From an uncultured Lachnospiraceae bacterium (lineage in GTDB: Bacteria; Bacillota; Clostridia; Lachnospirales; Lachnospiraceae): DNA of 21,582 nucleotides. The notes beneath the pieces are model-generated. The model saw only the letters and a list, made by a program, of their open reading frames with translations, did no database searches and had not been told where the DNA came from. The stretch is taken from the NCBI GenBank assembly GCA_947169935.1, contig CAMVRS010000060.1, positions 1 to 21,582 on the forward strand. Direction: 5' to 3'. Shown in pieces: positions 3,303 through 21,129 of the stretch (its first letter is position 1; each line of letters starts with the position of its first letter). The translations under genes were made by a program, and so were the position numbers.

Positions 3303-3386
3303 TTTCCATTCCTCCATATACTATTATGGCCACATCAGCCATTTCTGCTTTATAATATATATGATTTATCGATACGATAAAATTAT

Positions 3387-5192: not shown

Positions 5193-7875
5193 TTATCTTA
5201 TCTTCTTTCTTATGTGCCGGCGCTGTCTTATTCTTTACGTTCTGCAGGACATCATTTATATCTATCATCTCCTGCTTTTCCACTGTCTGAACCATAGCCT
5301 GACGGAACGGGGAAAATATCTGGGCTTCCACGGCAAGAGCTATGACGTCCATAGCCATCTCTTTAGTAATGTTCCTTGCCGGCAGAGCAACAAACTTGCC
5401 ATCTTTCTGCTCATATTCTATAAGAATAGGCTTATTTATCTTGCCTTTGGGGAAGATCAGGTCTTTCTTTGCGGCGATCTCTCCGTCTTTTCTTGCCTCA
5501 ACTGCCAGGGATACATTATCCTTTATGGTATGTGCAAGATTCTCGTATGTTGCGTAAACCGCACCAAGGGCATCTTTTACTTCCTGGTTCCCTGATGCCA
5601 CAAAGAATGCCAGCTCTTCGGGGTTAGCAAAAAGCTTTTCCCCCGAATTCTCCGTTACAAGGTTGAATTTCTTATCTCCATTTATAAGATTGGCAGCCAT
5701 AGCTTTCTCTGCTATGACATTTGCTCCCTTATATGAGGCGATCGAAAGCTTGTTGGCTAAGATATTAAGCTCATTTGCCTTATACTCCTCAAACTGGGCT
5801 ATGGCGCTGTTGCGTATGCTGCTTATGGCATTATGGATAGCCATATTGGCATCCTTTATCATGGTCATTGACAAAGGAGAGAGCATGCCTACTGCGGAGA
5901 CGGCTTCTTTGGACTTACCGGGAGTAAGCAGATTTTTCTGGAAATTCTTAACAGCTTCGCCTATGGTTCCCTTAAAGAAGTTCTTAATCTTATCGACTAT
6001 GGTAGTCTTACTTGTTCCCTGACATATCTCCGTCGTAAGGGTAACATGAGGCTTTAAGTGGCAGGCCACGAACAGTTCGGTAAGATTTTCGGCTTCCTTT
6101 GTATCCGGATTGATAAAGTCAAAATCGCGTCCTTTTGTGGTGCTCTTTACGATCTTTATAGTCCATTCCTGTCCGGAATCTTTAATAGTCACTATATGCC
6201 CAAGATGCTCATTTAATATCTCATAGACATCAAACATGCCGATAACCGATACACTTCCGGTAGAGTTCTCTACGTCCATGGAGTCACGCATAAGTGCCTT
6301 TACGGTCTCCAGCACCTCCTCTTTACGTGCCCTTTCTCCGGCTGCCGAAAGAGAGAGCGCTGATTCGATCATGTTGTTCTGCTCCTGGGCAGGTGCATAG
6401 GGGCATACATAGATCTTCATAGGTGAACCCAAAACCTTGCTTTTCGATCCCTGATCCAGAACACAGAAGACCTCTGTAAACAAGCCGCGGTACTGGTCAC
6501 TTTCTGCCAGAGCCCTGAGCTGGTTGTCACGGTTTCCTTTAAGCGTCTCCATGTCCGCCCAATAAGTATCGGAGGAGTTCATGGCTATAGCTGTCACGCC
6601 AAGACCGTGCTTGTTCGTCATCTCGCGTTCACGCTCTATGTATTCTTTCTGCTGACGTTTCCGCTTATCTACAGCTATATTGTAGCGCTCAAGTATCTCA
6701 CTGACTGCCGCATTGAACTTCTCGACATGTGCGTCGGCTTTTGGGTCATACCCGGGGACAATAAATCCTTCGGGTCCTACGATACAGTCATAAGAGGAGC
6801 GCTCCAGAATGTATCCTTTTGGAGTCATCATACCGTATGGATCCTGCAGCACGAAATCGACGTATCTGCCATTATGGGAACGGGCAGCTACATCATTAAG
6901 CTTCTGCCTTAACTCCTGATCCATCTGGGCCATGGCATTTATTGCCTGGTTCTTTTCCTTGTGATTTTCCTTTGCGACAGGAGTATTGGCAAGGTTGTTG
7001 TACTGTTCTACGTTAGAGTTTATGGCTGCTATAAGGTACTCCACCTCATCACGCAGGCTCCTCTGCAGGAATATGGCATCCCTTATCGCGTTGGTGTACT
7101 CTGTCAGATCCCTTTCGCCAAATGCGATAAAGTTCTTATCCATCTTCTCAAGGGGAGATGCGTCATCTGTCTTGCTCATAATCGGGGCAACGCTGAAAAC
7201 AACCTGCCCTTTTCTGTTAAGGCTGGTCTTGCCGACATGGTCTATGAGCATGTTCTTTTCAGAGGATACATCACTGTCAAACGCGCCTTTATCACCCTTT
7301 ACCCTTAAGCCTTCGGCATACCCGCCATCAGAGCTTACGGCTACGACACCGTTCTGGTTGACCAATGGCATGAATATGTTGGCATTTTCAGGGATAACCC
7401 CGGCTACCAGGGCGTCCTGTACCTCTATGGAGATAGCCTTCGTCAGATCCGAAACGGGCTTATTCTGGGAGGGGATCATCTTAAGGCGGGCTTCAAGTAT
7501 ATTCTTGCCGTGAGCCATGGACGCACCTATGGATATACCGCCGTTATCCTCTATAAAACCTACCAGCTCATCTTCCTTAAGTTCACCAACTTCACGGTCA
7601 TTTAAGTTATAGACGCGGTATATGATGACAAAAGCCTTCTGCTCTTCGTTATATTCCACACATACGTTGATATGAGAAGGAGCCTGGGAAGGAGTCTCAT
7701 ATTTGGTGATATCGGTATTTAAGGCTATGGGGAAGACATATTCGGTCTTACTGTCCCTTAAGTCTTCTGCCGCCTGGATAAACGCTCTTACCGCAGCGCC
7801 GGAGTCTTTCGTCCGCAGAGCTTTGATAAGCGCTTCCTGCTTCTTATCCTGATTTCCAAATCCTAAAAAGCCCAT
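5167..7875 (-). CDS. very large hypothetical protein (902 aa)
   Basis: ATG at 7875 with GGGAGGA about 11 nt upstream. The 2.7 kb open frame is interrupted only by short antisense shadow ORFs. No canonical P-loop: GKT and GKS occur, but without the upstream Gly of GxxxxGK[ST]. No DExH or HD motif. No family recognised. Confidence 0.8.
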   Translation of the reverse strand: MGFLGFGNQDKKQEALIKALRTKDSGAAVRAFIQAAEDLRDSKTEYVFPIALNTDITKYETPSQAPSHINVCVEYNEEQKAFVIIYRVYNLNDREVGELKEDELVGFIEDNGGISIGASMAHGKNILEARLKMIPSQNKPVSDLTKAISIEVQDALVAGVIPENANIFMPLVNQNGVVAVSSDGGYAEGLRVKGDKGAFDSDVSSEKNMLIDHVGKTSLNRKGQVVFSVAPIMSKTDDASPLEKMDKNFIAFGERDLTEYTNAIRDAIFLQRSLRDEVEYLIAAINSNVEQYNNLANTPVAKENHKEKNQAINAMAQMDQELRQKLNDVAARSHNGRYVDFVLQDPYGMMTPKGYILERSSYDCIVGPEGFIVPGYDPKADAHVEKFNAAVSEILERYNIAVDKRKRQQKEYIEREREMTNKHGLGVTAIAMNSSDTYWADMETLKGNRDNQLRALAESDQYRGLFTEVFCVLDQGSKSKVLGSPMKIYVCPYAPAQEQNNMIESALSLSAAGERARKEEVLETVKALMRDSMDVENSTGSVSVIGMFDVYEILNEHLGHIVTIKDSGQEWTIKIVKSTTKGRDFDFINPDTKEAENLTELFVACHLKPHVTLTTEICQGTSKTTIVDKIKNFFKGTIGEAVKNFQKNLLTPGKSKEAVSAVGMLSPLSMTMIKDANMAIHNAISSIRNSAIAQFEEYKANELNILANKLSIASYKGANVIAEKAMAANLINGDKKFNLVTENSGEKLFANPEELAFFVASGNQEVKDALGAVYATYENLAHTIKDNVSLAVEARKDGEIAAKKDLIFPKGKINKPILIEYEQKDGKFVALPARNITKEMAMDVIALAVEAQIFSPFRQAMVQTVEKQEMIDINDVLQNVKNKTAPAHKKEDKIIDPNNKAR

Positions 7876-8505: not shown

Positions 8506-8718
8506 TTTATCCTCCAAAAGTCTGTTTACCATAACATAGCAGATTACGTATACCGCCAAAAATATGCTACGCTATGCCGGACCGGGCATAAAATCGTATC
8601 TTACATATATAATTTAGCAGATTTTTTCAAAAATCACGAAAAAAAGATAAAATACCATAAATGGATGAAAATCCATAAATAAACATAATCTCCTCATCTT
8701 AAAATGAGCAAAGCATAC

Positions 8719-8756
8719 AAAAAGCTCTCAGTTCAGATGTCTGAGAGCTTTTTTTG
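8719..8756. terminator. intrinsic terminator downstream of 8809..9513 (bidirectional shape)
   Basis: Perfect 9-bp stem AGCTCTCAG (8723-8731) / CTGAGAGCT (8741-8749) with a 9-nt loop, an A-run on the left and a T-run (8749-8756) on the right. Confidence 0.65.
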
Positions 8757-8808
8757 ATTACTAAAATATTAAGCTTTCTGGTTTGCCGTGTCCGGTATCA
8801 GCAGAGTA

Positions 8809-9513
8809 TTAAGCTAAAGCTTTTTCATAAGATTTTACAGCTTTTTCCCATATAGATACGGTACTCTTAATGTTCAATCTACCATCATACCACCGGTCAG
8901 CCTGCATGGGGGATGCAATCCCAGCAATATCCTTTGACATCTGTTCCGGGAGCTCCTTAAGTCCACAGGTTTTTAAAAAAACATTGATATCCTTTGTCTC
9001 TATAAGTTTAGATACCATTTCTATCATTTCTTCACAGGAGATGTTTTTTTCGATCTCTGCATTTTCAAAAACAAAATCTTCACCGGGATAATCAACTATT
9101 TCGTCAGATATTTCACTAACCAGACAATCTATAAAACAGCCAAGGTCAAAGTATATATACAGATCATCGTCATACATATAGTTGTCACCCTGATCCCAAT
9201 AAAATATTGCCGGAGAAGGAAAACAATCTCTTTGGCGGATATTGATATGTCCGTCACCATGAAATTCGATAGGATCCATGTGGATGCCAAAATCCATTCG
9301 GTAATATACCGACCCATCCTCATCTTCATCTTTTTCTCCTGCTTCTATGGATCGGGGAGTATGTAAGGTGAAAAATCCGGGGGCATTGTCATGGACTTCG
9401 GTGTTCTCAATACCTTCCTCAAAATCCCTGACAGTCATACCGCACAGGCTTGCACATAACTGTATTACAGCATCTTCAAGTTCCTTTCTTCTTTCAGCAC
9501 TTAATTTATCCAT
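8809..9513 (-). CDS. strongly acidic hypothetical protein (234 aa)
   Basis: ATG at 9513 preceded by AGGAGGAAGCAG. The protein is rich in D/E runs (EKDEDEDG, YMYDDDLY, EISDEIVDYPGEDF). No family recognised. Confidence 0.75.
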   Translation of the reverse strand: MDKLSAERRKELEDAVIQLCASLCGMTVRDFEEGIENTEVHDNAPGFFTLHTPRSIEAGEKDEDEDGSVYYRMDFGIHMDPIEFHGDGHINIRQRDCFPSPAIFYWDQGDNYMYDDDLYIYFDLGCFIDCLVSEISDEIVDYPGEDFVFENAEIEKNISCEEMIEMVSKLIETKDINVFLKTCGLKELPEQMSKDIAGIASPMQADRWYDGRLNIKSTVSIWEKAVKSYEKALA

Positions 9514-9523
9514 CTGCTTCCTC

Positions 9524-9865
9524 CTATATAAAATCCCGTATACTCATGCCTGGAGCATTCCAGGGGCACCCCGGTCCGTAATCACCGGCTGTGGCGGACG
9601 GAGTGTAGTATCTCTCGTCATCATCGGTTTCAATCTCCCCGATCAGCTCTGAGAATGTGCAGCCGGTGAAAGCAGAAAGGATATCGTCGATAAACCCTGT
9701 CTGGGTCTCTGACTCTGCCCGCGCTATGGACTCAAAGATCGCTTTTACGATACCATCATTAGCGTAGTGAAGAGTTTCGAACGCCTTTTCGCTTATGGTC
9801 TCCGTAAGCTTATTTCGGTCTATTGTGGGCAGGGATTTCTTTATTCTAAGTAATTCTTTTGTCAT
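9524..9865 (-). CDS. hypothetical protein (113 aa)
   Basis: ATG at 9865 preceded by AAGGAGAAATAAAA. Its stop lies 10 nt before the next gene, so it is probably co-transcribed with 8809..9513. The C-terminus is ...GDYGPGCPWNAPGMSIRDFI. Confidence 0.7.
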   Translation of the reverse strand: MTKELLRIKKSLPTIDRNKLTETISEKAFETLHYANDGIVKAIFESIARAESETQTGFIDDILSAFTGCTFSELIGEIETDDDERYYTPSATAGDYGPGCPWNAPGMSIRDFI

Positions 9866-9928: not shown

Positions 9929-9964
9929 TAAAAAACGGCCTCCGGATGCCGAAAGCCGTTATTT
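9929..9964 (-). terminator. probable intrinsic terminator after the 79-aa gene
   Basis: Stem AACGGC (9934-9939) / GCCGTT (9955-9960) with a 15-nt loop. A/T runs flank both sides, and the structure starts immediately after the stop at 9965-9967. Confidence 0.45.
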
Positions 9965-10204
9965 TTACTGCCAGATCCCGTAGGATATGGTGTTATCCGA
10001 TATTCTGTTGATGCGCGTTAACAGTTTAAGCCTTTCCCCTGTATTTATATCGTATAGCTGGAGCAGGTCAATGCTGCGGCGCATATCAAAGTCCTTTACT
10101 ATCCTTGAAGCCTTTTTCTTCATCTCTTCTAAAGATGAGGCTTCGATCTTGCGGTTATCAAGACCCTGCAGGATGCCAAAGAACTTTTTCTTTCTCCAGA
10201 ACAT
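9965..10204 (-). CDS. small hypothetical protein (79 aa)
   Basis: ATG at 10204 preceded by AAAGGAGGATATGCT. A terminator-like hairpin follows directly downstream. Confidence 0.55.
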   Translation of the reverse strand: MFWRKKKFFGILQGLDNRKIEASSLEEMKKKASRIVKDFDMRRSIDLLQLYDINTGERLKLLTRINRISDNTISYGIWQ

Positions 10205-10293
10205 AGCATATCCTCCTTTTTTATATCATATACATATATAATATATGAAAAAGGATACTATATAAAAAAAGACAGAACATATGCTAAGAAGTT

Positions 10294-10488
10294 TTATATG
10301 CCTCTTTTTCTTCCGGCATATTCAACAAACTCTGACATTTCTTTTCCTGTTTCGATCGTTGATTTTAAAGTATTCAGATATTCTTCCTGACTGCACAAAT
10401 AATCATCAGGACATGGTACATACCCGAATTTGTCTTTGTATTGAAGATTGAGGGGCTGACAGACCTTTCCGAATTCAATCGATGTCAT
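10294..10488 (-). CDS. small hypothetical protein (64 aa); start uncertain
   Basis: The track ORF 10294..10512 starts at a GTG that lies inside the IscB-element end hairpin. The first ATG is at 10488 (MTSIEFGKV...) and has no convincing SD. Low-confidence gene. Confidence 0.35.
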   Translation of the reverse strand: MTSIEFGKVCQPLNLQYKDKFGYVPCPDDYLCSQEEYLNTLKSTIETGKEMSEFVEYAGRKRGI

Positions 10489-10507
10489 AAAAATCTCGGC
10501 GTGGAAA

Positions 10508-10527
10508 CCCACAGGCTTGCCTGCGGG
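10508..10527 (-). repeat. right-end (RE) subterminal hairpin of the IscB element
   Basis: 8-bp stem (one G-U pair) with a CAAG loop, 12 nt downstream of the iscB stop. It differs at 3 of 20 positions from the hairpin at 12022-12041. Confidence 0.65.
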
Positions 10528-10538
10528 AGGAACCGCCT

Positions 10539-11777
10539 CTAACCTACCTTTCTTTGTTCTATAAGAATATTTTTACGCATTTCCAGCATCCGAAGATTCT
10601 TACATCCTACGGATGCATTCACTTTAGTACCATCTAAAAGCCGTAAATCCATTCGGCCTGTGGAACGTCTGCCAAATATAAAACAGTTTTGTACTTTCCA
10701 CTTTACTTTATCATAAAGCCTGAATCCCATTACCTCATAGGGAGCCTGATTACGCTTTCTGATGCCACCCTTAAGGATAGTGTTCTTATGTATCTGACGG
10801 TTATGGCATCTTACTTTCTTTTGGTAATATACCGTTCCGTCTGATACAGCCTTTGGATTACCGCTTATACAACGGGCATCTATATAATGGTCTTTTGGCA
10901 AATCGTTCTCTATACGGGTATTCTTTGTAATGTATCCGTAAGTCAGGTTTACATTTGGATATACCTTTTTAAGTTTATTGTATATAGACCATCGTAAAAT
11001 CCCCATGAAAGCAGCATCCTTAAACAACATTCCTCGCTTTATGGTCTTTGGTAATCTGACAGTACCTTTATGATGACCAGTATGACAGGTTTTACATAAG
11101 GTAATCAGATTATTAGGAGCATTGCCGCCTGTTTTCCTGCTTTCAATATGATGTACATTCAGGATTTCGTCTTTTGACTTACCTTTACAGCACTGACAGG
11201 TATGACCATCCCTGAACAGTATATATTCCCTGACATTCCAGAAATCTGACTGTTCGCCTTGCTGGTAATCCGTACCGCTTATCATAGGATTTTTTATCTT
11301 TTGGATATCAAAGGATGCAACCTCTATTATAATTTTGGTAATCGGGAGTATCTCATGTACTCTGCGGATCACTGTCAGGTGGGTATCTGCTTTATTCTGG
11401 ACCGAAGGAGCTAACCATCCATCCTTACGCCTGCGGTTATCAAAACGCGGTTTGCGGTATCTGGTTTTACGGTTTCTTCTGGTCCTGCGGTTCTGTCTGC
11501 GGGTAGAAAGCAAATCTACTATATCGTTTCGCAGTTCTATATCGGACTCGAATAATACTTTGTTTTCTGTAGTTGCTGAAAGACCGATATGCTTACTTCC
11601 GCTATCTACACCTAAAGTAATGTCTTGTGTATAGTTCTTGCTGCTATACAGCAGTTGTATCGTAAACGGACATCTTTTGATTACCTTTGCCTTTTGGGTT
11701 TTTAACAGAATACGGACTTTTGCATGGTTTTCCGTGGGCATTAAAGGCTGTCCGTTTGAACTTATAACGTAAACCAT
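10539..11777 (-). CDS. iscB: IscB RNA-guided nuclease (412 aa)
   Basis: N-terminal PLMP motif (NGQPLMPT). RuvC-I LGVDSGSKHIGLS. Arg-rich bridge helix RRQNRRTRRNRKTRYRKPRFDNRRR. RuvC-II IIIEVASFD. HNH CQCCKG...NVHHIESRKTGGNAPNNLITLCKTCHTGHH. RuvC-III DHYIDARCI. C-terminal TID-like segment YEVMGFRLYDKVKW...IFGRRSTGRMDLRLLDG. ATG at 11777 with AAGGAG 9 nt upstream. Confidence 0.9.
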   Translation of the reverse strand: MVYVISSNGQPLMPTENHAKVRILLKTQKAKVIKRCPFTIQLLYSSKNYTQDITLGVDSGSKHIGLSATTENKVLFESDIELRNDIVDLLSTRRQNRRTRRNRKTRYRKPRFDNRRRKDGWLAPSVQNKADTHLTVIRRVHEILPITKIIIEVASFDIQKIKNPMISGTDYQQGEQSDFWNVREYILFRDGHTCQCCKGKSKDEILNVHHIESRKTGGNAPNNLITLCKTCHTGHHKGTVRLPKTIKRGMLFKDAAFMGILRWSIYNKLKKVYPNVNLTYGYITKNTRIENDLPKDHYIDARCISGNPKAVSDGTVYYQKKVRCHNRQIHKNTILKGGIRKRNQAPYEVMGFRLYDKVKWKVQNCFIFGRRSTGRMDLRLLDGTKVNASVGCKNLRMLEMRKNILIEQRKVG

Positions 11778-12051
11778 AAGGTCCGTCTCCTTTCTAACTC
11801 AGTTAAGAGTTAATCACTCACTCCGAAGAGCGGTTAGTGTACCATCGCCAATGTTAATGAGAGGTTTTATGCAAGCAACACTGTTCCTATACCTCAGAAC
11901 CGTTTAATCACTTACCTTAGAGCTACAGACTTGGTACTATATCCGTAGGTAACTATATATTCTCTCCTAACGTAGTCTCTGTTTCAAGGCTTAGGCTACT
12001 CACTCAGGGTTGTCATGCAACCCCACGGGCTTGCCCGTGGGTATTAGTGAG
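11778..12051 (-). ncRNA. putative omega-RNA scaffold of IscB (the guide would lie immediately 5', about 12052-12070)
   Basis: A non-coding ~275 nt stretch directly upstream of iscB, which is where omega-RNAs are encoded. In minus-strand reading it is dense in helices. A closing helix CTCACT (12051-12046) / AGTGAG (12004-11999) encloses the LE hairpin and a second hairpin GGTTG-CATGA-CAACC (12022-12008). Further features are CTC-UUCG-GAG near 11830 and TAACTC-TTAACT-GAGTTA just before the SD. The ends are not determined. Confidence 0.6.
12022..12041 (-). repeat. left-end (LE) subterminal hairpin of the IscB element
   Basis: Perfect 8-bp stem CCCACGGG/CCCGTGGG with a CAAG loop. It is the counterpart of the hairpin at 10508-10527. 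Confidence 0.65.
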
Positions 12052-12115
12052 ATCTCATTCTCCTCATTAAATCTTTTAAATTTACATATACTCTGTATAT
12101 AATGTAAATCTGAGG

Positions 12116-12625
12116 TTATTCGCCTAACCCCCAGTCGTCTTTGCTCTTTTTCAGATCTGCCATCTTAGCTTTGTTCATGGCTATTCGTATCTGTCTCATT
12201 TTTTCTTCTGCAGCCTTATTGGGGGTTGTTGCTATCATATTTTTTGCTCCTTTAAGATTATCTTCTTTAATGATAGCATCACCGACTTTTGTTCCCAGGG
12301 ATTTGCCATCGCCTTCTTTGACGTTTCTTGCCGGTGTGAGTCCTAAGTTTGTCCCGCCAAGACCACCTTCCGGTTCTGCGGGAGCTCCGTCTGCTCCGCC
12401 GTCCGAATCCCTGTTATCCTTTTTATCTTCCTGTTCTTGTTTTGTTTGCCTTTGGCTTCTTTCGTCTATCGGATATGTTGGTCCGGGCAGGGCCTTATTC
12501 CCTGTCGGTGCTGCCAAAGAAGAATCAATGGTATCAAATGAATCATCTTTCAGCCGCCGAGCGGCATTTTTCGTTTTGGCATCCAGGGCTCTAGCTTTTA
12601 ATTCGCTTATTTTTGTTTCTGGCAT
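12116..12625 (-). CDS. hypothetical low-complexity (K/D/G/E-rich, probably disordered) protein, 169 aa
   Basis: Track ORF 12116..12682. I prefer the ATG at 12625 (MPETKISELKARALD...), which is preceded by AAAGGAGGTTATATAC. The antisense ORF 12141..12776 is longer but has no SD, and its composition looks like the mirror of this frame. Confidence 0.55.
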   Translation of the reverse strand: MPETKISELKARALDAKTKNAARRLKDDSFDTIDSSLAAPTGNKALPGPTYPIDERSQRQTKQEQEDKKDNRDSDGGADGAPAEPEGGLGGTNLGLTPARNVKEGDGKSLGTKVGDAIIKEDNLKGAKNMIATTPNKAAEEKMRQIRIAMNKAKMADLKKSKDDWGLGE

Positions 12626-12680
12626 GTATATAACCTCCTTTATAACATTTATGGATAATGACCAGGAAAAGCACTGCCTC

Positions 12681-12712
12681 AAAAAACCATCAGCAGGAAC
12701 CGGATTGCTGAT
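12681..12712 (-). terminator. candidate intrinsic terminator at the distal end of CRISPR-array transcription
   Basis: In minus-strand reading: ATCAGCA-ATCCGGTTCC-TGCTGAT (stem arms at 12706-12712 and 12689-12695), followed by GG and TTTTTT (complement of 12681-12686). Confidence 0.45.
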
Positions 12713-12825
12713 ACATCTTACATTCCTTTCACAGGATATGCCAAGAAAATGCGTATTTTTATTATGTGCAGTTTAGAGAAACACATCCTGTTACCGAAAT
12801 AGACATATTGTTTTATAATACCTCT

Positions 12826-12921
12826 TTTTAAATTCACGTGCTTTCATAACACGACAAAAAACGTAAAACGCATAAGCTTATCATCAGTCATTTCTATTTA
12901 CATAATCATACAGGTTACGAC
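12826..12921 (-). repeat. two decayed terminal CRISPR repeats with the ancestral spacer between them
   Basis: 12890-12921 (atttctatttacataatcatacaggttacgac) matches the repeat consensus at 22 of 32 positions and keeps the 66-nt phase with the repeat at 12956. 12826-12855 (ttttaaattcacgtgctttcataacacgac) resembles the cgcatgt...acatgcg repeat variant with 2 deletions. The gaps between units are 34 and 34 nt. Confidence 0.5.
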
Positions 12922-12955
12922 CAAATTCTTCTCTATGTGCTTAAATTATAATGCG

Positions 12956-14307
12956 ATTCCAATTCACGCATACTCGTGGGGTGCGACCTTTTATAGTAAT
13001 AGATGTCCCTTTTCCAGCCCATTTCAATTCACACAACTGCGTAGGTTGTGACTTGCGGCAATGACCGGCGGATACTCATTCATCACAATTTCAATTCACA
13101 CAACCGTATAAGTTGCGACCTAAGTTTTTTCACAAAATAAGTTTTAATATGTAATTTCAATTCACGCATACTCGCGGGTTGCGACCCATTTCATCAGCTT
13201 CGAGTGTCGAATAAATCTATTTCAATTCACGCATGTGTATAACATGCGACGTGAGTATTTTTTGTATTGAAAGGAGAAAACTATGATTTCAATTCACGCA
13301 TGTGTACAACATGCGACTGTTCTACGCCAGCCCCGATCTTCCATCTCACGGACATTTCAATTCACACAACCGTGTAAGTTGTGACTCAGTGGTTGGGTAT
13401 CAGTAATTATAGAAAATCATTTCAATTCACACAACCGCGTATGTTGTGACTAATCTTAAGAATCGTAAATCTACAACTTATTTTTATTTCAATTCCCACA
13501 ACAGCGTAGGTTGTGACACTGGGATAACCTCTTTAATTTCGTTGGGAGTGCCATTTCAATTCACACAACCGCGTAGGTTATGACTTTTTCTGTATCAAAA
13601 AAAGTGACAAAACATAATGATTTCAATTCACACAACCACGTAGGTTGTGACGCATCACCAGCTCCTTATAATACCCTGTCACATCATTTCAATTCACACA
13701 ACCGCGTAGGTTGTGACAAAATAATTGACGCAAAATCCAAAACTTATTTTATTTCAATTCACGCATACTCGAGGGTTGCGACATGAGCAGTCATAATCCT
13801 AATGTATTTTTCATGATTTCAATTCACGCAACAACGTAAGCTGCGACCTTTTATAGTAATAGATGTCCCTTTTCCAGCCCATTTCAATTCCCACAACCGC
13901 GTAGGTTGTGACTAATCAATCGTATACGTATGGCGGACAAAAACGCATTTTAATTCACACAACTGCGTAGGTTGTGACGCGTCCTCCTTGTTAATAAGGG
14001 CTTTCTCACGACAATTTCAATTCACACAACCGCGTAGGTTGTGACAGGGTTATTGACGATATCGATCCAGTCGTCCAAATTTCAATTCACACAACCGTGT
14101 AGGTTGTGACAGAATCGTTTGTTCCAGAGCGCGAGACATACAAGATTTCAATTCACACAACCGTGTAGGTTGTGACTCCTTACGGTATTCCAAAAGTCCT
14201 TCCTGCAATATTTCAATTCACACAACCGTGTAGGTTGTGACGGGAGAGGAGACGAAAAGATACAAGACCGCAAAAATTTCAATTCACACAACCGTGTAGG
14301 TTGTGAC
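12956..14307 (-). CRISPR. type I-C CRISPR array: 21 repeats of 32 nt, 20 spacers of 33-36 nt
   Basis: Repeat starts: 12956, 13021, 13088, 13154, 13219, 13286, 13354, 13419, 13486, 13553, 13620, 13686, 13751, 13816, 13881, 13947, 14014, 14079, 14145, 14210, 14276. The leader-proximal consensus, read on the minus strand, is GTCACAACCTACACGGTTGTGTGAATTGAAAT: a 7-bp stem-loop followed by the ...ATTGAAAT end typical of I-C repeats. The orientation is the same as the cas genes. The four repeats nearest the cas genes are identical, and the distal ones diverge. Confidence 0.97.
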
Positions 14308-14499
14308 AGCAAAATAAAACCAAATAATACCCTTCTTTAATACTACTTTGGTAAATCTCGTCTTATAACTATTATATTATTCATTCATTTCTGTATATAA
14401 TTGTCAATGTGCGGGACAAAACATCAACGTTTTTATATAGCAGACGGTGCGAAGGATCCGCAAATCACATGTCTGCTTCACCTTCGCACCAGATATAAC
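14308..14499 (-). promoter_or_regulatory. CRISPR leader (AT-rich) between the cas7 stop and the first repeat
   Basis: A 192 nt non-coding, AT-rich stretch adjacent to the homogeneous end of the array. On the minus strand there is a perfect TTGACA (14407-14402), but no good -10 at 17 nt (ATGAAT), so the promoter is not pinned down. It also contains a 10-bp perfect inverted repeat (14446-14455 / 14481-14490). Confidence 0.6.
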
Positions 14500-15360
14500 T
14501 TATTCGTATACCTTAACTTCTATCTCTGCAGGTATATCCTTGTCTATCTTGAACTCATAATCCTTAAAGCTTCTTGCCGGGGCTGCGGGATCCTTACGTG
14601 TTATGGATACCTTATCGAAGAGCTTGTAGTAAGGAGCGTTTCCGTGCTTGCTCTGATGCTTAAAGACGATAAGCTTTCTTGCTACAACATGTCCTCTTGA
14701 AGATGAGGTATCCTCACTCCACATATTCTGCAGCGCGTCGATCAGTGCCTGCATGTCTTCCTCACTGAACCCGGTCTTCTCTGCCAGCTCTGCTGACACA
14801 TGACCTTCAAATATGTACAGACCATAAGGAACTATGAACTTGTTGCCCATTGTATTATCGTGGGTCTTCTTCTCATTCTCCGTTGCAACAGCGCAGCGGG
14901 TAATGGTGATCTCCTGGGGGACGATAGGGTCAACGGAACGTCCGAAGCTTACCTGTACGGGACCCTTTACCTGCGCATTCAGGTTCATCTTTGCAAAACC
15001 GGTAAGGACTGCTCCAAAAGCGCGGATATCGAAATAGTTATCGCACATGAAGCTATGCAGCTTTGAGCCTATCTCAGGATCCTCTTTCTTTGATCCGCCT
15101 CCAACAGCCTCATAAGCAGCTGAGTCCTTACTGTTAAGGAAGTCATCGCTCTGGATATAGATGTTGTATCCGGCTTTATCGCTCATGCTCCTGGTCATAT
15201 AGTCGCGGATCTTTTTCTTAAGGCATACGTCAGTAATGATGCCGTGTCCGGTCTCAGCGTCCTGTCTGGGCATGTTCCCCATGTCGGGATCGCCATTAGG
15301 GTTACTGTTGATAACCTCTACTGCCAATAAGAAATCGTACCTGTTCTTTAATGCTGCCAT
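14500..15360 (-). CDS. cas7: type I-C Cascade backbone subunit Cas7c (Csd2), 286 aa
   Basis: The N-terminus (RYDFLLAVEVINSNPNGDPDMGNMPRQDAETGHGIITDVCLKKKIRDY) is the Csd2/Cas7 I-C signature. AAGGAG lies 10 nt upstream of the ATG at 15360. Confidence 0.95.
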   Translation of the reverse strand: MAALKNRYDFLLAVEVINSNPNGDPDMGNMPRQDAETGHGIITDVCLKKKIRDYMTRSMSDKAGYNIYIQSDDFLNSKDSAAYEAVGGGSKKEDPEIGSKLHSFMCDNYFDIRAFGAVLTGFAKMNLNAQVKGPVQVSFGRSVDPIVPQEITITRCAVATENEKKTHDNTMGNKFIVPYGLYIFEGHVSAELAEKTGFSEEDMQALIDALQNMWSEDTSSSRGHVVARKLIVFKHQSKHGNAPYYKLFDKVSITRKDPAAPARSFKDYEFKIDKDIPAEIEVKVYE

Positions 15361-15395
15361 GTTTTTATTTCTCCTTTTCTATTTATTTTTATTGT

Positions 15396-15809
15396 TTAGT
15401 TTTCTGCTGCTTCTGTATTTTCAGAAGATGCTGCTTCTTTTTTCTCTTTGGGAGTAAAGTAGTATGCTTTCTGGTGGTAGTACCCAAGCTGGAACCTGCT
15501 CTGCTCTTCCAGGGACATGCGGGTAGGATATGTAGTGCTTATCCTGTTTAGCAGTTCTTCCATCTGTCTCTCAAGGTGGATCGCCACGCCCCTCTTTTCA
15601 TCGATCTTTTTCATCTTCTTGAGATGATACTCCGAATGGTTCACGAGCATAGGGAATACCATTGCGGGAGTGACTGATGCAGAGTAGATGTACTTGTCGC
15701 GGATAGTCTTCTGTATGTTCCTGATCGCCTCTATCTGAGTGCGCTCCAGCAGGAAAAACAAACGTCCGAGAATGTATGCCTGATCGTCACATTCATTGTT
15801 AAGAGCCAC
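15396..15809 (-). CDS. cas11: predicted Cas11c small subunit made by internal initiation within cas8c (137 aa)
   Basis: Perfect AAGGAGG (complement of 15818-15824), an 8-nt spacer, then an in-frame GTG at 15809-15807. The product starts (M)ALNNECDDQAYILGRLFFLLERTQ..., which is the helical C-terminal bundle of Cas8c. Internal translation of Cas11 from cas8c is established for type I-C. This particular start is predicted from sequence only. Confidence 0.55.
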   Translation of the reverse strand: MALNNECDDQAYILGRLFFLLERTQIEAIRNIQKTIRDKYIYSASVTPAMVFPMLVNHSEYHLKKMKKIDEKRGVAIHLERQMEELLNRISTTYPTRMSLEEQSRFQLGYYHQKAYYFTPKEKKEAASSENTEAAEN

Positions 15810-17201
15810 CTGTAATACCTCCTTTGGATATCCTTTTATTTGCTTACGGGTATAATACCCTTTGATGAACGATACATGTATAGTCCTTATGTCCTGCGTA
15901 CTCTTAAAGCGTCTGTTATACGCTCCGAGCATATTGAAGGAGAAGGGAGTACCGGTGAACACGGACTTAATCATCTCCTCAAGAATGTCGGGATTTACGC
16001 TTGACTTATCCTGCATCCTCTTTGTTGCTCCTATGAGCTGATACAATGTCGGTACTTTAGCGTCATCTTCCTTGCCTAAGGGCGCTATGTCGATATCATC
16101 ATAGAACTTAACGACGTTAGCCATAAACTTACCTACCGTCATATGGGTAAACAGCTTGATCGATAAGCGCGCCTGGTTAGCTTCTATGCCAAGAAGACAG
16201 TATTCGGAGTTGGGATCTATGACCGTTCCTTTATATACGACCCTCTCTCCGTCTGCCAGGGACTTTATCATCTCCCGGGGACTAAACCCTTCTTCATCGG
16301 ATCTGTCGCCGTAGATGACCGCATCAACCAGCTTTCTTATAACTCTCTGCTGTTCATCGGAGTCTGTTTCGCTCCAGATAAATATGACGTCGTCGCCCAG
16401 GATAAAGACGCCCTTATTGTTAAGCATATATTTGAGGGCTGTGGTATAAGCAAAGGCCTCATACGGTGTCATAGGTGCATTTTCGCCTTTATCCTTATAT
16501 TCTCCACTTACGCTGGGAAGATTAAAGGATACTAGGGCTGCCCCGCTGCTCAGTGCTCCGGGGAACGAGGTTATCATGGGGTGTGTCTTTGCAATGGGTC
16601 CTTTTTTGCCGGATACGATGCTTATTCCCTCAGGCAGGCCTTCGGTTTCCGTCTCTTCGTAATATCTACTCCAGCATTCTTTGACAATCTTATTCTCATG
16701 CAGATATTCCCCATCCACTTCAACAACATAGTTTCCCTCAAGCTTATCTCCCTTAATGTCTTTGGAATAAGGAAGACTTTCGATATTTAAAGGATCCCAG
16801 TTATCTAGGAAGGTCAGATATGCGTCGATAACAGGCTCCTTTTCGTTCCCACGCAGAACCTCGTGCTGCAGCTGTCTGAATGCATTGAAACACTTAAGAG
16901 CACGGGCTTTTTCTGCAGGATCTGCCAGACCAAGGATATAGGATTCCTTTTCCCAGCCGAAATAGGGTTTTACCTTATTCGATCTTGACCCGGAGAAAGG
17001 AAGTTCTATCTTTAAGGGAAATGTGAGCTCCTTGCCTTTGGGTGATAAAACCGTCTCAAAAAGAGGTTCTATGTTCTTAAGCTTGCCGTTCTTACTGAGG
17101 CAGAGCTTATAATTGATCTTCTGGATAGAAAATCCCGGCAAAGGAACCTTATCTTCTTTTTTAAGGGTTTCATAATAGTTTATCAGTGACTCGATAACCA
17201 T
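15396..17201 (-). CDS. cas8c: type I-C large subunit Cas8c (Csd1), 601 aa
   Basis: Correct position between cas5 and cas7, and correct length. The N-terminus is Csd1-like (MVIESLINYYETLKKEDKVPLPGFSIQKINYKLCLSKNGKL). The start ATG at 17201 shares one nucleotide with the cas5 stop (TGATG), indicating translational coupling. Confidence 0.92.
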   Translation of the reverse strand: MVIESLINYYETLKKEDKVPLPGFSIQKINYKLCLSKNGKLKNIEPLFETVLSPKGKELTFPLKIELPFSGSRSNKVKPYFGWEKESYILGLADPAEKARALKCFNAFRQLQHEVLRGNEKEPVIDAYLTFLDNWDPLNIESLPYSKDIKGDKLEGNYVVEVDGEYLHENKIVKECWSRYYEETETEGLPEGISIVSGKKGPIAKTHPMITSFPGALSSGAALVSFNLPSVSGEYKDKGENAPMTPYEAFAYTTALKYMLNNKGVFILGDDVIFIWSETDSDEQQRVIRKLVDAVIYGDRSDEEGFSPREMIKSLADGERVVYKGTVIDPNSEYCLLGIEANQARLSIKLFTHMTVGKFMANVVKFYDDIDIAPLGKEDDAKVPTLYQLIGATKRMQDKSSVNPDILEEMIKSVFTGTPFSFNMLGAYNRRFKSTQDIRTIHVSFIKGYYTRKQIKGYPKEVLQVALNNECDDQAYILGRLFFLLERTQIEAIRNIQKTIRDKYIYSASVTPAMVFPMLVNHSEYHLKKMKKIDEKRGVAIHLERQMEELLNRISTTYPTRMSLEEQSRFQLGYYHQKAYYFTPKEKKEAASSENTEAAEN

Positions 17202-17869
17202 CAGCCTTTGACCTCCTCACTGTTTTCTGCGGGTACTTTTATAACTCCGTCTTCCATTACTGCCCTGAAAAATCTGGGCACCGGATCGGAAGGGTTGCTG
17301 TAATCAAATGAATGGAGCATAAATCCTAAATCTCTGCGTCCTTTAAGCTCTTCGGGACATTCATATTCTCCCTCTGCTATCTTGACGTTGGCTACGCATT
17401 CCCGTAAGCCTAAACATGGCTGTTCAAAACACTGCCCTCTCTTAAGCCGGTTGCCAAGGATAGCGGTAACCTTATCCCTTAACTCCTTCGTGTCCTGAGC
17501 CTTGTCGATATCATAATGTGCGTCTATGACATACCGGACATCCTTAAGCATCATGGTCGATCGCTGCTGTCTCATGATCCCTTCTGTCACTAGAACAGCT
17601 GCAGAAGGATTTCCGCTTTCCATGGCTGCTTTAAATGAACTTACTTTTGCTTTGCTGCGGACCTCATTCCGACGGATATTCTCAAACTTGATCGGTGAGA
17701 GAACCCTGATCCGGTCGATCACAAACGACACTCCCGGATGCCAGTAGATGGCCCGGAATATGCCTACTGCTGCTGATGGGGTGATAACGTCATACGATAC
17801 ACGCTCGGTTTTGAATTCGGGACGAGTAAAACATGCGTTCTTACCCCACACTTCAATACTTATTCCCAT
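17201..17869 (-). CDS. cas5: type I-C Cas5c/Cas5d (pre-crRNA endoribonuclease subunit), 222 aa
   Basis: EVWGKNACFTRPEFKTERVSYDVITPSAAVGIFRAIYWHPGVSFVIDRIRVLSPIKFENIRRNEV is the conserved Cas5d N-terminal signature. AGGGGG lies 7 nt upstream of the ATG at 17869. Confidence 0.95.
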   Translation of the reverse strand: MGISIEVWGKNACFTRPEFKTERVSYDVITPSAAVGIFRAIYWHPGVSFVIDRIRVLSPIKFENIRRNEVRSKAKVSSFKAAMESGNPSAAVLVTEGIMRQQRSTMMLKDVRYVIDAHYDIDKAQDTKELRDKVTAILGNRLKRGQCFEQPCLGLRECVANVKIAEGEYECPEELKGRRDLGFMLHSFDYSNPSDPVPRFFRAVMEDGVIKVPAENSEEVKG

Positions 17870-18017: not shown

Positions 18018-18662
18018 TCAATTAAATAACGGTCTTTGCTTTGATCTTACTGACTTTATATGGAGCTTGAATTCCTTTCGGCTGTTACAGTTAAGCCTTT
18101 TTATACGCTCACATACATATATAACATCTTTATTGGCGGATTTTGGGTTACCTTTTGTCGGTTTTTGTGCTTTTACCTCCTTTAGCACTGCATCCAGCTC
18201 ATCGACAGATATAACCAGCATATCCGACCTTCCGACATTAAGTACCGGATCAGAAGCAAACACTACTACCGGAATAAGCTCTATTGATGTCTCCAGTAAC
18301 TCCTCTACGGCTTTCAGGTGCCCGTAATTCTGCCAGACCGGGTTATAAAACGTATAGATTCGGCCCGCAGGAGTAATCTGCCGCCAGCTTTTCTCATAAG
18401 AGCATCCGCTGATAAGCCCCCCATGGTTCTTTGTCTCCACGATCAGGAGACAATCTTGGGATACAGCTATGTGATCTATCTGCACTGTACGTCCGTTCTC
18501 CTTAAAAATGAGGTCATCAAACACACGGAAACCATGTCTCCTTAATATTCTGCTTACTCTTTTTTCTCCCTCCTTACCGCTCTTTATTGCCCTTTTTTCA
18601 GGGCTAACCTTAAAAAGATATATCAAAAGCGGAACGGAGAGTAATATCACAAATCCAAGCAT
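18018..18662 (-). CDS. membrane-anchored NERD (nuclease-related domain) protein, 214 aa
   Basis: Track ORF 18018..18743. I prefer the ATG at 18662 (MLGFVILLSVPLLIYLFKV...): GGAGG lies 8 nt upstream, and the longer N-terminus would run through the upstream terminator hairpin. One N-terminal TM helix. NERD core: GKEGEKRVSRILRRHGFRVFDDLIF...VQIDHIAVSQDCLLIVETKNHGG...W...YNPVWQNYGHLKAV, containing a D...E-x-K nuclease motif (IDH / ETK). Confidence 0.8.
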   Translation of the reverse strand: MLGFVILLSVPLLIYLFKVSPEKRAIKSGKEGEKRVSRILRRHGFRVFDDLIFKENGRTVQIDHIAVSQDCLLIVETKNHGGLISGCSYEKSWRQITPAGRIYTFYNPVWQNYGHLKAVEELLETSIELIPVVVFASDPVLNVGRSDMLVISVDELDAVLKEVKAQKPTKGNPKSANKDVIYVCERIKRLNCNSRKEFKLHIKSVRSKQRPLFN

Positions 18663-18743
18663 TATGTCTGCCTCCGTTCTACCTTTAATATATGCGATTT
18701 TTAGAAGTGAAAAATTAGTATGTAGAGATTTGATGTAAAACAC

Positions 18744-18772
18744 AAAAAAAGGTGCTGTCTTTCGACAACACC
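18744..18772 (-). terminator. intrinsic terminator after the DUF5688-like gene
   Basis: In minus-strand reading: GGTGTTGTC-GAAA-GACAGCACC (9-bp stem with one G-U pair) followed by 7 T (complement of 18744-18750). It starts about 20 nt after the stop at 18792, and it separates the NERD/cas transcription unit from the upstream genes. Confidence 0.6.
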
Positions 18773-18791
18773 TTTGAAATAAATTGGCTGC

Positions 18792-20421: not shown

Positions 20422-20670
20422 AAGTTTTCTTCTCCTTTTGTTAGAATGTTTTTTACGTTAATAATATAGGTGATAGCTTTTACTGATAAAAAAGTATGTT
20501 ATGGGCTTACGGATTATTCCTACAGTTAGCCCCTGTATTGTGTAAACTCTTATATTTTTTTTTGCGGGCAAAACCGTGAACTTCCACATTGTTTCAAGAT
20601 TTTCTTTTTGGTAAATTTTCTTTGTGCGATAAAGCACACAAAAACAAAACAAAAAAGGAGATTTTATACT

Positions 20671-21129
20671 ATGAAGGCAATCTTAATACTGTTAACCGCT
20701 GCTACTGTTGGAACCGCACAGCCCGCTGTAACTGAATTGTCTATAAACGATAACGCCGGTAACGTGATCCGAACATGGGATATCGAAGATACAGATATCT
20801 TTTCTGATATAGCCTTACCCGCAGATAACAATGATAATGTGCTGCGCAGATCCAAGATAATAATCAAGAAGCTGAGGGATACCTCTGTTGATGAAATATC
20901 CTCTGAATATGCGATTCCTGCAGATACAAAGGATAATATATTGCGCCGTTCCAAGATAATCATCAAAAAACTTAAGAACTCCGATAATGAGCTGGATTCT
21001 TTCGCTACCGTTAAGGGATATGGCAAGCTGAACTCTTTCGCTACTGTTAAAGGATATGGCAACAACAAAACGTGTGGTATCTGGAGTAGGATTAAATCGT
21101 GGTGGTATGAATATACTCATAAATCATGA
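20671..21129 (+). CDS. secreted hypothetical protein with internal tandem repeats (152 aa)
   Basis: Track ORF 20608..21129. I prefer the ATG at 20671, which is preceded by AAAAGGAG (10 nt spacer). The N-terminus MKAILILLTAATVGTAQP looks like a signal peptide. The protein contains two repeat pairs (see the repeat feature). Confidence 0.65.
   Translation: MKAILILLTAATVGTAQPAVTELSINDNAGNVIRTWDIEDTDIFSDIALPADNNDNVLRRSKIIIKKLRDTSVDEISSEYAIPADTKDNILRRSKIIIKKLKNSDNELDSFATVKGYGKLNSFATVKGYGNNKTCGIWSRIKSWWYEYTHKS
20812..21063 (+). repeat. in-frame tandem duplications inside the secreted-protein gene
   Basis: Unit A: 20812-20880 (ALPADNNDNVLRRSKIIIKKLRD) against 20911-20979 (AIPADTKDNILRRSKIIIKKLKN), 99 nt apart. 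Unit B: 20992-21027 (LDSFATVKGYGK) is directly followed by 21028-21063 (LNSFATVKGYGN). Confidence 0.75.

Follow-up and report, generated by a model that had tools for sequence, protein, structure and literature searches.

Derivatives of type I CRISPR systems that lack Cas3 are known as the guides of CRISPR-associated transposons (CASTs), as Cascades carrying an HNH domain and, by functional analogy, in the form of type IV systems. The locus described here was found in an uncultured Lachnospiraceae bacterium (assembly GCA_947169935.1, contig CAMVRS010000060.1, positions 1 to 21,582), and this whole stretch of 21,582 nucleotides is referred to as the window. The type I-C Cascade genes cas5c, cas8c and cas7c (14500-17869, reverse strand) are followed there by a large CRISPR array, and both cas3 and the adaptation genes cas4-cas1-cas2 are missing in cis. 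For want of these genes the locus is an I-C-derived variant and not a canonical member, and an I-C Cascade with a large updated array but without Cas3, a helicase and adaptation genes is not a described subtype. The reading set out below, to which somewhat less than an even chance is given, is that of a functional, mobile-element-borne I-C derivative which has been cut down to recognition guided by CRISPR RNA (crRNA) plus an array, and which interferes by binding alone.

Compared to canonical type I-C systems, represented by those of Desulfovibrio vulgaris and Neisseria lactamica and by the gut loci L004, L007, L009, L018 and L019, the window locus shares Cas5c, a Cas8c with an internal Cas11c start, Cas7c and the lack of Cas6. 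It also shares the 32-nucleotide repeat with its 7-bp stem, pentaloop and ATTGAAAT handle, the SGS loop of Cas8c and the TTGCT|G junction between leader and repeat. Canonical systems have cas3 and cas4-cas1-cas2, whereas the window locus is without both, and its Cas8c stands on a separate long branch (31-37% identity).

The likeness to type IV-A3 systems of Klebsiella conjugative plasmids is functional only. These systems are also plasmid-encoded and possess neither a nuclease nor an adaptation module; they silence rival plasmids without a nuclease and gain spacers through host Cas1/2, which update the arrays at a compatible leader-repeat junction (bioRxiv 10.1101/2023.06.23.546257). Silencing and plasmid targeting are features of type IV-A3, whereas the window locus is known from its sequence alone. 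Furthermore, type IV-A is built from Csf proteins unrelated to Cas5c, Cas8c and Cas7c and needs the DinG helicase for silencing within gene bodies, whereas the window has no helicase. Neither DinG nor Csf1, Csf2 or Csf3 is among the family matches of the window, whose effector proteins belong to I-C families.

Three further groups of Cas3-less systems come close. First, the I-C variant of huge phages (PMC7162821) likewise has I-C-like Cas5, Cas7 and Cas8 on a mobile element without Cas1, Cas2 and Cas3; it has a helicase in place of Cas3, whereas the window has no helicase and a plasmid-like backbone. Second, Altae-Tran et al. (2023; PMC10910872) described an incomplete, Cas3-less I-C system with a Cas8-Cas5 fusion, proposed to be a DNA binder, as well as Cas3-less Cas8-HNH and Cas5-HNH Cascades whose built-in nuclease is proposed to cut. 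In the window, by contrast, cas5 and cas8c are separate genes and the sole HNH domain lies in a separate gene, that of IscB. Third, I-C CASTs (Rybarski et al. 2021) have Cas5, Cas7 and Cas8c without Cas3 or Cas1/2; in them TnsABC and TniQ lie next to the cas genes and an array cannot be detected, whereas the window has no Tns genes and an array of 23 repeats. In none of these systems is a large updated array on a Rep_3-type plasmid combined with Cas5 and Cas8c as separate proteins and with the absence of both a helicase and Tns genes.

The effector complex and its array

The preliminary description of this DNA, made from the letters alone, had held that the three Cascade genes are intact at 222, 601 and 286 amino acids, and this was borne out by coordinates, family scores and matches to PDB structures. 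All three lie on the reverse strand: cas5c (17201-17869), which encodes the pre-crRNA endonuclease subunit of 222 amino acids (PF09704, E=1.6e-33; TIGR01876, 177 bits with a cutoff of 85); cas8c/csd1 (15396-17201), which encodes the large subunit of 601 amino acids (PF09709, E=4e-129; TIGR01863, 345 bits with a cutoff of 219); and cas7c/csd2 (14500-15360), which encodes the backbone subunit of 286 amino acids (PF05107, E=1e-94; TIGR02589, 312 bits with a cutoff of 182). Each product is thus far above the curated Pfam and NCBIfam cut-offs for its type I-C family. The ribosome-binding sites (GAGGAGG and AAGGAG) and the TGATG stop/start overlap that had been pointed out were read directly in the sequence. 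Cas5 and Cas8c are of normal length and belong to one family each from end to end, with no HNH or other domain inserted, and no window open reading frame (ORF) matched a Cas6 model of Pfam or NCBIfam.

D. vulgaris Cas5c (PDB 7KHA_A) aligns end to end with the window protein (E=2.7e-57). Of the catalytic triad, which is described together with the geometry of the hairpin substrate in PMC8524198, Y42 and the invariant lysine K133 are kept, and the third position is valine in the Cas3-less clade described below vs phenylalanine in canonical gut loci. Cas8c aligns over its full length with the D. vulgaris and N. lactamica proteins, and its residues S70-G71-S72 occupy the aligned position of the SGS loop which reads the protospacer adjacent motif (PAM) in N. 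lactamica. The authors of the N. lactamica structure regard this loop as a predictor of TTC specificity; because it is retained, the PAM is presumably TTC.

Furthermore, cas8c contains a predicted internal start for Cas11c (15396-15809, reverse strand; 137 amino acids). The candidate start is an in-frame GTG at cas8c codon 465, 7 nucleotides past AAGGAGG, and it coincides with the N-terminus of the D. vulgaris Cas11c chain, 7KHA_K; in the alignment, query residue 467 stands opposite residue 3 of that chain. The Shine-Dalgarno sequence is encoded by the codons of the PKEV motif, which is conserved across I-C Cas8c proteins. Translation from this start within cas8c would make the gene set of the effector complex complete.

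Directly 3' of cas7, with no cas4-cas1-cas2 between, lie a leader (14308-14499, reverse strand; 192 nucleotides, AT-rich, ending in TTTTGCT at the first repeat) and a type I-C array (12824-14307, reverse strand) of 23 repeats of 32 nucleotides, the last two degenerate, with 22 spacers of 33-36 nucleotides. The consensus repeat, GTCACAACCTACGCGGTTGTGTGAATTGAAAT, is typical of type I-C and folds into a 7-bp stem with a 5-nucleotide loop and the ATTGAAAT handle. The 3' handle (ATTGAAAT/C), the length of about 32 nucleotides, the stem and the pentaloop are all those of a I-C repeat, and the hairpin has the geometry of a Cas5c substrate (PMC8524198).

The repeats are unusual in their heterogeneity, with 18 distinct sequences among the 22 well-formed repeats of the window vs 28-47 identical copies in canonical arrays. 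Covariation was analysed in a set of 36 distinct repeat sequences taken from the window and two related loci, L006 and L002. In this set 92% of stem positions were paired and six of the seven pairs were altered on both sides, and shuffled and slid controls had far lower stem-pairing scores than the real repeats. These compensatory changes indicate that the crRNA hairpin is under selection while the sequence drifts. The heterogeneity suggests infrequent acquisition together with recombination between arrays. Stem variants are interleaved along the arrays of the window (12824-14307), L006 (2558-3994) and L002 (3770-4928), which also suggests recombination between arrays besides addition at the leader end. 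The spacer GGGCTGGAAAAGGGACATCTATTACTATAAAAG is present in two copies in the array of the window (12988-13020 and 13848-13880) and in a single copy in L006.

Two features of the leader end resemble canonical systems. The junction TTGCT|G is common to the window, L006, L002 and four canonical I-C arrays (L004, L007/8, L009/10 and L018). The first four window repeats are of a single variant (ACACGG), which is absent further into the array, and L007, with a canonical array, behaves likewise; this may be the footprint expected if the first repeat is copied at each integration.

Repeats that vary while hairpin and handle are kept could also serve an anti-defence decoy, in which the plasmid Cascade or repeats rival the host I-C system, loading host crRNAs into complexes unable to recruit Cas3 or titrating Cas proteins, and in this way shield the plasmid from host CRISPR. 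RNA anti-CRISPRs which mimic repeats are known on mobile elements (PMC10651486), and such a decoy would fit the co-residence with a host I-C system that is argued for below. However, an array of 22 spacers with turnover, in which several spacers are directed to variants of the same coding sites, points to offensive targeting, and nothing in this analysis shows a loss of Cas3 docking. The decoy is therefore considered very improbable.

Absence of cas3 and conservation of the layout

Window ORFs of at least 80 amino acids were scanned with Pfam, NCBIfam, PHROGs and PADLOC models. No ORF in the 21.6 kb matched Cas3 HD, DEAD/ResIII helicase, Cas4, Cas1 or Cas2, and no helicase domain of any kind was found among the window ORFs by these family models. 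In tblastn searches, canonical Cas3, Cas4, Cas1 and Cas2 from three complete I-C loci gave nothing against the window at E<=1, not even a fragment, and no remnants of cas3, cas4, cas1 or cas2 were found by tblastn in the window, L002, L003 or L006. Thus the claim that no Cas3-like nuclease-helicase is encoded in the 21.6 kb held, as did the claim that the long ORFs, that of the 902-amino-acid protein among them, have no Cas3 motifs. The 902- and 711-amino-acid proteins were considered as a hidden Cas3 or other effector and rejected, as they have no domain matches and are backbone genes on CRISPR-free relatives.

The Cascade genes are under strong purifying selection. The closest relative, L006, is a 4.8-kb metagenome contig that is 96.7% identical to the window over cas8c, cas7, the leader and the first repeat. 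Between the two, the ratio of nonsynonymous to synonymous substitution rates (dN/dS) is 0.047 for cas8c (488 codons) and 0.042 for cas7, or about 0.045, and cas7c is 99% identical to its L006 copy.

A search of 1.84 billion representatives gave about 1,370 Cas8c clusters (50% identity) at E<1e-30, of which only two are close to the query. The nearest relatives of the window Cas8c are P0001 (97% identity), P0002 (59%) and P0003 (41%), and all others in the Cas8c searches are at most 37% identical. In a neighbour-joining tree, the window, P0002 and P0003 proteins form a clade apart from canonical gut Cas8c; members of this clade are 31-37% identical to canonical Cas8c, and the canonical gut proteins are 42-90% identical among themselves. 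The searches also returned P0267, a protein of 1003 amino acids that is 33% identical to the whole of Cas8c (residues 1-603) and is longer than it by about 400 residues, possibly as the result of a fusion.

The preliminary description had proposed asking whether homologous loci also lack cas3, and this check was run. L002, which encodes P0002, has cas5-cas8c-cas7 and an array on a short contig in which the upstream side is not covered. L003, which encodes P0003 on a 66-kb contig, has cas5-cas8c-cas7 and an array of 20 repeats, and neither cas3 nor any of cas1/2/4 lies in the 9 kb upstream or the 10 kb downstream. When Cas7 was used as the query, three more members of the L003 lineage (L014, L015 and L016) and a fourth lineage (L017) came to light. 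No cas3 was found within 7-10 kb on either side in L003 and L014. L017 (2993-6368; Cas7 58% identical) has cas5-cas8c-cas7 alone, and its 10-kb contig has neither a CRISPR array nor cas3. The loss of cas3 is thus conserved in L003, L014 and L017 as far as their DNA is available. By comparison, cas3 lies directly upstream of cas5 in all seven canonical loci (L004, L007, L008, L009, L010, L018 and L019), and all have cas4-cas1-cas2 except L018, where only cas4 and cas2 were called. Within the DNA available, the layout without Cas3 and adaptation genes appears as a rare, old and maintained state of a monophyletic Cas8c clade.

Three explanations of the absence bear on these comparisons. The first is that the system is complete but split, with cas3 and perhaps cas4-cas1-cas2 elsewhere on the same large replicon. 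The element may be larger than 100 kb, and the window is probably almost all of one assembled contig of it, as cluster members of 601, 286 and 902 amino acids are found on a contig of 21,612 nucleotides. Moreover, acquisition at the leader end requires adaptation genes from somewhere. Against this, cas3 was always immediately upstream of cas5 in the canonical I-C loci examined, three to four independent Cas3-less lineages have no cas3 in the DNA available (9-10 kb on either side in L003), and 22.7 kb of a related 113-kb element contains no cas gene at all. A split system is accordingly thought improbable.

The second and third are that the locus is a non-functional remnant, or that its Cascade was co-opted for RNA-guided transposition in the manner of I-C CASTs. 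Deletions of cas3 do happen, and I-C Cascades without Cas3 and adaptation genes occur in Tn7-like CASTs (bioRxiv 10.1101/2021.08.16.456562). However, the low dN/dS, the intact reading frames, Cas11c start and hairpin covariation and the layout conserved across the clade argue against decay. No window ORF scanned had a family match to TnsA, TnsB, TnsC or TniQ, and the reported I-C CASTs have no arrays, compared to the 23 repeats found here. Taken as one alternative, remnant or transposition guide is most unlikely. The possibility that the locus is a recent deletion remnant, which the preliminary description had itself named, fails in view of the purifying selection and the lack of cas pseudogenes, and its view of an apparently functional Cascade without a cas3 in cis gained support from the dN/dS, the hairpin covariation and the recurrence across the clade.

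Spacer acquisition, targets and mode of interference

Spacers differ between close relatives at the leader end. The window and L006 have about six older spacers in common, partly reordered, and differ in their leader-end spacers. Similarly, L003 and L014 have five trailer spacers in common, in the same order, and differ at the leader end. From this turnover, from the variant shared by the first repeats and from the TTGCT|G junction of canonical type, we infer that the array continues to gain spacers through a canonical I-C integrase acting in trans; no integrase was itself observed. The picture of a Cascade without Cas3 given in the preliminary description stands, but four features had gone unnoticed there: an array is present, cas4-cas1-cas2 are missing, cas8c contains a predicted start for Cas11c, and an IscB element lies nearby. 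With the array, the missing adaptation genes and Cas11c included, the picture becomes one of an effector complex and array which outsource adaptation and possibly cleavage.

The sequences of the spacers give some indication of their targets. Three families consist of variants that differ solely at synonymous third-codon positions, with the patterns A[LM]TGGYS[LF][IV][TA], SGIRIPPM and L[DG]DWI[DR]IV..P. These differences indicate that the members of a family were taken from one site of a protein-coding gene as it occurs in diverged homologues, so that the same target-gene site would have been captured repeatedly. The synonymous variants are window spacers W19 and W04 and L006 spacers S14, S15, S16, S18 and S11, of which S14 and S15 are adjacent in the array. 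In addition, 7 of 20 window spacers have a GC content below 0.32, compared to 9-13% of TTC-flanked 34-mers in plasmids of the family (binomial P of about 0.002-0.01), and one window spacer spans a ribosome-binding site and ATG. The AT-rich spacers hint at intergenic targets.

Direct searches for targets gave no protospacer. The window array had no blastn match in GenBank phages and only weak repeat-to-repeat matches in PLSDB plasmids. Spacers of four arrays gave only chance-level matches of 11-17 nucleotides to the window and every fetched locus, and six exact or codon-degenerate patterns from five spacers were absent from IMG/VR. One lead was pursued and rejected: a 15-nucleotide match of S05/W18 and an 11-nucleotide match of W09 lie among the iterons upstream of the Rep_3 gene of L011, a plasmid-like relative described below, and these matches do not extend. 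The chance expectation across the searched loci is about 0.4 for a 15-mer and about 10 for 11-mers.

The mechanism proposed for this locus can be described in four steps. First, the array would be transcribed from the leader, Cas5c would cut at the base of the 7-bp/5-nucleotide hairpin and Cascade would assemble on the crRNAs; this is proposed because the proteins are intact and the hairpin covaries. Second, Cascade would recognise TTC-flanked protospacers in other mobile elements, the targets presumably belonging to diverged rivals, in which both protein-coding genes and AT-rich sites of intergenic character would be hit. Third, Cas1-Cas2-Cas4 of a co-resident canonical I-C system would add spacers at the leader end in trans. 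Fourth, no nuclease would be needed in cis if stable binding of Cascade, with formation of an R-loop, blocks transcription or replication of the rival, by analogy to type IV-A3; a compatible host Cas3 might be recruited opportunistically where one is present. The steps of processing, target recognition and adaptation in trans are reasonably supported, and the binding-only output is the weakest inference in the scheme. In its favour may be counted the age of the state and its recurrence on different elements and the precedent of type IV-A3. Parsimony also speaks for it: if a complete host I-C system could be used, an array alone would do, so that the carriage of its own Cascade without Cas3 suggests that Cascade itself provides the benefit.

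Several observations weigh against interference by binding alone. The segment of Cas8c equivalent to the Cas3 'recruit loop' of N. lactamica is still there and contains hydrophobic residues, which would be expected of a system that continues to use Cas3. Adaptation in trans implies a co-resident I-C system, and that system would supply Cas3 too. The window shows 21.6 kb, and the remainder of the replicon is outside this view. Since no protospacer was found for the window spacers, target class, PAM and any preference for promoters over gene bodies are inferred at most, and the excess of AT-rich spacers presumes that the targets share the composition of this plasmid family. The purine content of the spacers is 0.50, as in canonical arrays, with no bias to the non-template strand. 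Finally, a reading frame can be inferred for three spacer families, and in two of them pairing is with the template strand, a poor orientation for a helicase-free roadblock to transcription inside genes.

Some of these observations are equally part of the case for host Cas3 in trans as the obligatory effector. The plasmid Cascade would then form R-loops to which Cas3 of the host's canonical I-C system is recruited, the plasmid would economise on cas3, cas1, cas2 and cas4, and targets would be degraded processively. The leader-end turnover and the TTGCT|G junction imply a co-resident I-C system, canonical I-C systems are abundant among the gut Firmicutes matches, Cas8c has kept both its recruit-loop segment and the SGS loop for the PAM, and the spacers are without strand bias, as in canonical arrays. 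The use of host Cas proteins has also been proposed for phage systems without interference genes (Al-Shayeb et al., PMC7162821). However, at 31-37% identity to canonical proteins, Cas8c is on a long branch for a surface that has to dock a foreign Cas3. The equivalent of the N. lactamica recruit loop (A276-P297) is kept at residues 278-301, and in the branch of the window and P0002 it carries a 4-residue insertion and has aromatic residues swapped for aliphatic ones. In addition, a Cascade of its own is hard to explain if a complete host system is at hand, and no host, nor a host repeat identical to the window repeats, was identified. An obligatory host Cas3 is given a lower chance than binding alone and a clearly higher one than the other alternatives. 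Loss of the recruit loop was tried as evidence on this question and set aside; the segment is retained in the alignment and so does not discriminate.

A more specific version of the binding-only proposal is advanced with still more reserve. It holds that the locus is a nuclease- and helicase-free I-C Cascade used in plasmid warfare, which has converged on the lifestyle of type IV-A, receives its spacers from host I-C Cas1-Cas2-Cas4 and keeps out rival plasmids or phages solely by R-loop binding at promoters, origins or essential genes. If so, the locus would stand as a variant in its own right, derived from I-C, and no smaller 'CRISPRi-only' type I system would occur in nature (one limited to CRISPR interference with gene expression) that has a large, actively updated array. 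If binding alone is indeed the output, nuclease-free conflict between plasmids arose from type I-C independently of type IV, and gut Firmicutes offer a compact, natural CRISPRi module of three genes. If, on the other hand, host Cas3 and Cas1-2-4 are borrowed, the locus would show clearly how a plasmid can leave the two ends of CRISPR immunity to its host, which would bear on the exchange of cas modules and on the ecology of gut plasmids.

The mobile backbone and neighbouring genes

Gene order in the window follows that of the 113-kb contig L011 (JAMQYI010287829.1) over genes for proteins of 120 and 178 amino acids, DUF5688, and proteins of 113, 216, 902, 711 and 262 amino acids. L011 carries a Rep_3 initiator, a single-stranded DNA-binding protein, a DnaG-type zinc-ribbon (primase-like) protein and a sigma-like factor, and about 1 kb of iterons of two families (8 and 9 copies) lies upstream of Rep_3 (iterons and Rep_3 in L011 6870-9112). 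This collinearity identifies the backbone as a large Rep_3/iteron plasmid-like element. The only taxonomic label obtained is that of a Lachnospiraceae metagenome-assembled genome, and the proposed host is a gut bacterium of Lachnospiraceae type. No replication gene was seen anywhere in the window. The position of the L011 iterons and Rep_3 (window 8560-9865) is occupied by a very acidic ORF of 234 amino acids without a family match (8809-9513).

The 902-amino-acid backbone protein (5167-7875, reverse strand) and the 711-amino-acid backbone protein (1182-3317, reverse strand) have no match in Pfam, NCBIfam, PHROGs or PADLOC. Homologues of the former are found on L011 (74% identity) and on L012/L013; among 5.8 billion proteins its homologues make up no more than five clusters, every one of them from plasmid-like contigs related to this element, and nothing was found in IMG/VR. 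At the level of nucleotides, megablast of the window gave no match in GenBank phages or PLSDB, and IMG/VR gave only a remote partial match. Cas8c had no hit in an exact look-up, scans of genome contigs with Cas8c and with a protein from the window edge were likewise empty, and a metagenome scan yielded L006 alone. The NERD gene, the cas genes, the array and the IscB gene fill a slot between DUF5688 and the 113-amino-acid gene which is variable among relatives, and no cas genes are found in the available DNA of L011 (22.7 kb) and L012. The element that carries the lineage of L003 and L014 is another one, on which T5orf172, NT5C and genes resembling type III restriction-modification systems are found. 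In both loci the ResIII proteins encoded near cas5 adjoin methylase genes and look like restriction-modification subunits.

The two nucleases encoded nearest to the Cascade genes are IscB and a protein with a nuclease-related domain (NERD). IscB (10539-11777, reverse strand; 412 amino acids; NF040563 guided_IscB, 388 bits with a cutoff of 175) has RuvC and HNH motifs that align with those of OgeuIscB and are apparently intact. Directly upstream of it is a HEARO/omega RNA (11833-12051, reverse strand; Rfam RF02033, 112.6 bits with a gathering score of 83). The two form a complete obligate mobile element-guided activity (OMEGA) module (10539-12051) without TnpA, 0.8 kb past the array. The module and a low-complexity ORF of 170 amino acids (12116-12625) are contained in a 2.9-kb block (about 9950-12823). 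L006 lacks this whole block, and past its array the homologue of window position 9949 is reached within 170 nucleotides. No IscB is found near the arrays of L002 or L003.

The NERD-domain protein (18018-18661, reverse strand; about 214 amino acids; PF08378, E=2e-23) has an N-terminal hydrophobic helix and is counted as a neighbour of the system. Its stop codon is at 18018, and the 148-nucleotide gap to cas5 noted in the preliminary description was confirmed in the sequence. The listed ORF of 241 amino acids (18018-18743) begins inside a strong terminator hairpin (18748-18775), and translation probably begins instead at the ATG at 18661, behind a GGAGG sequence. No terminator was detected between the NERD gene and cas5. 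Beside cas5 in L003, L014 and L017 there is no NERD counterpart, and this position is not covered in L006 or L002.

These neighbours could be thought to provide a different effector in cis which replaces Cas3, be it IscB, the membrane-anchored NERD protein or an ORF without a family match. IscB is close to the array and its catalytic motifs appear intact, NERD is a nuclease-related domain and no terminator was detected between its gene and cas5, and HNH-bearing Cascades are known to replace Cas3 (PMC10910872). However, IscB has an omega RNA of its own and is absent, with its block, from L006, L002 and L003; as a partner of Cascade it was rejected on these grounds, and its absence from the closest relative indicates an independent OMEGA element and an unrelated insertion. 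NERD is lacking beside cas5 in L003, L014 and L017, and the genes for the 216-, 902- and 711-amino-acid proteins are also found in L011-L013, without a CRISPR block in the syntenic region. Cas5 and Cas8c are of normal length and have no inserted domain. A replacement effector in cis, one of the three readings offered in the preliminary description besides host Cas3 in trans and binding alone, is thus disfavoured, as IscB and NERD are the only nearby nucleases, and its probability is put at a very low level.

TnpB (OrfB_IS605) genes are present on related plasmids (L012 1794-3125 and 12929-14329; L013 5816-7216). With IscB in the window and TnpB on these relatives, plasmids of this family seem to be frequent carriers of elements of the OMEGA type. 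A membrane protein of 601 amino acids with a sulfatase domain and LtaS-like architecture (3387-5192, reverse strand) is encoded by a gene inserted between those of the 902- and 711-amino-acid proteins, with no counterpart at that position of L011. Lastly, a 36-nucleotide tandem duplication (20990-21062; two copies, 89% match) lies where the ORFs at 20608-21129 (forward strand) and 20664-21068 (reverse strand) overlap.

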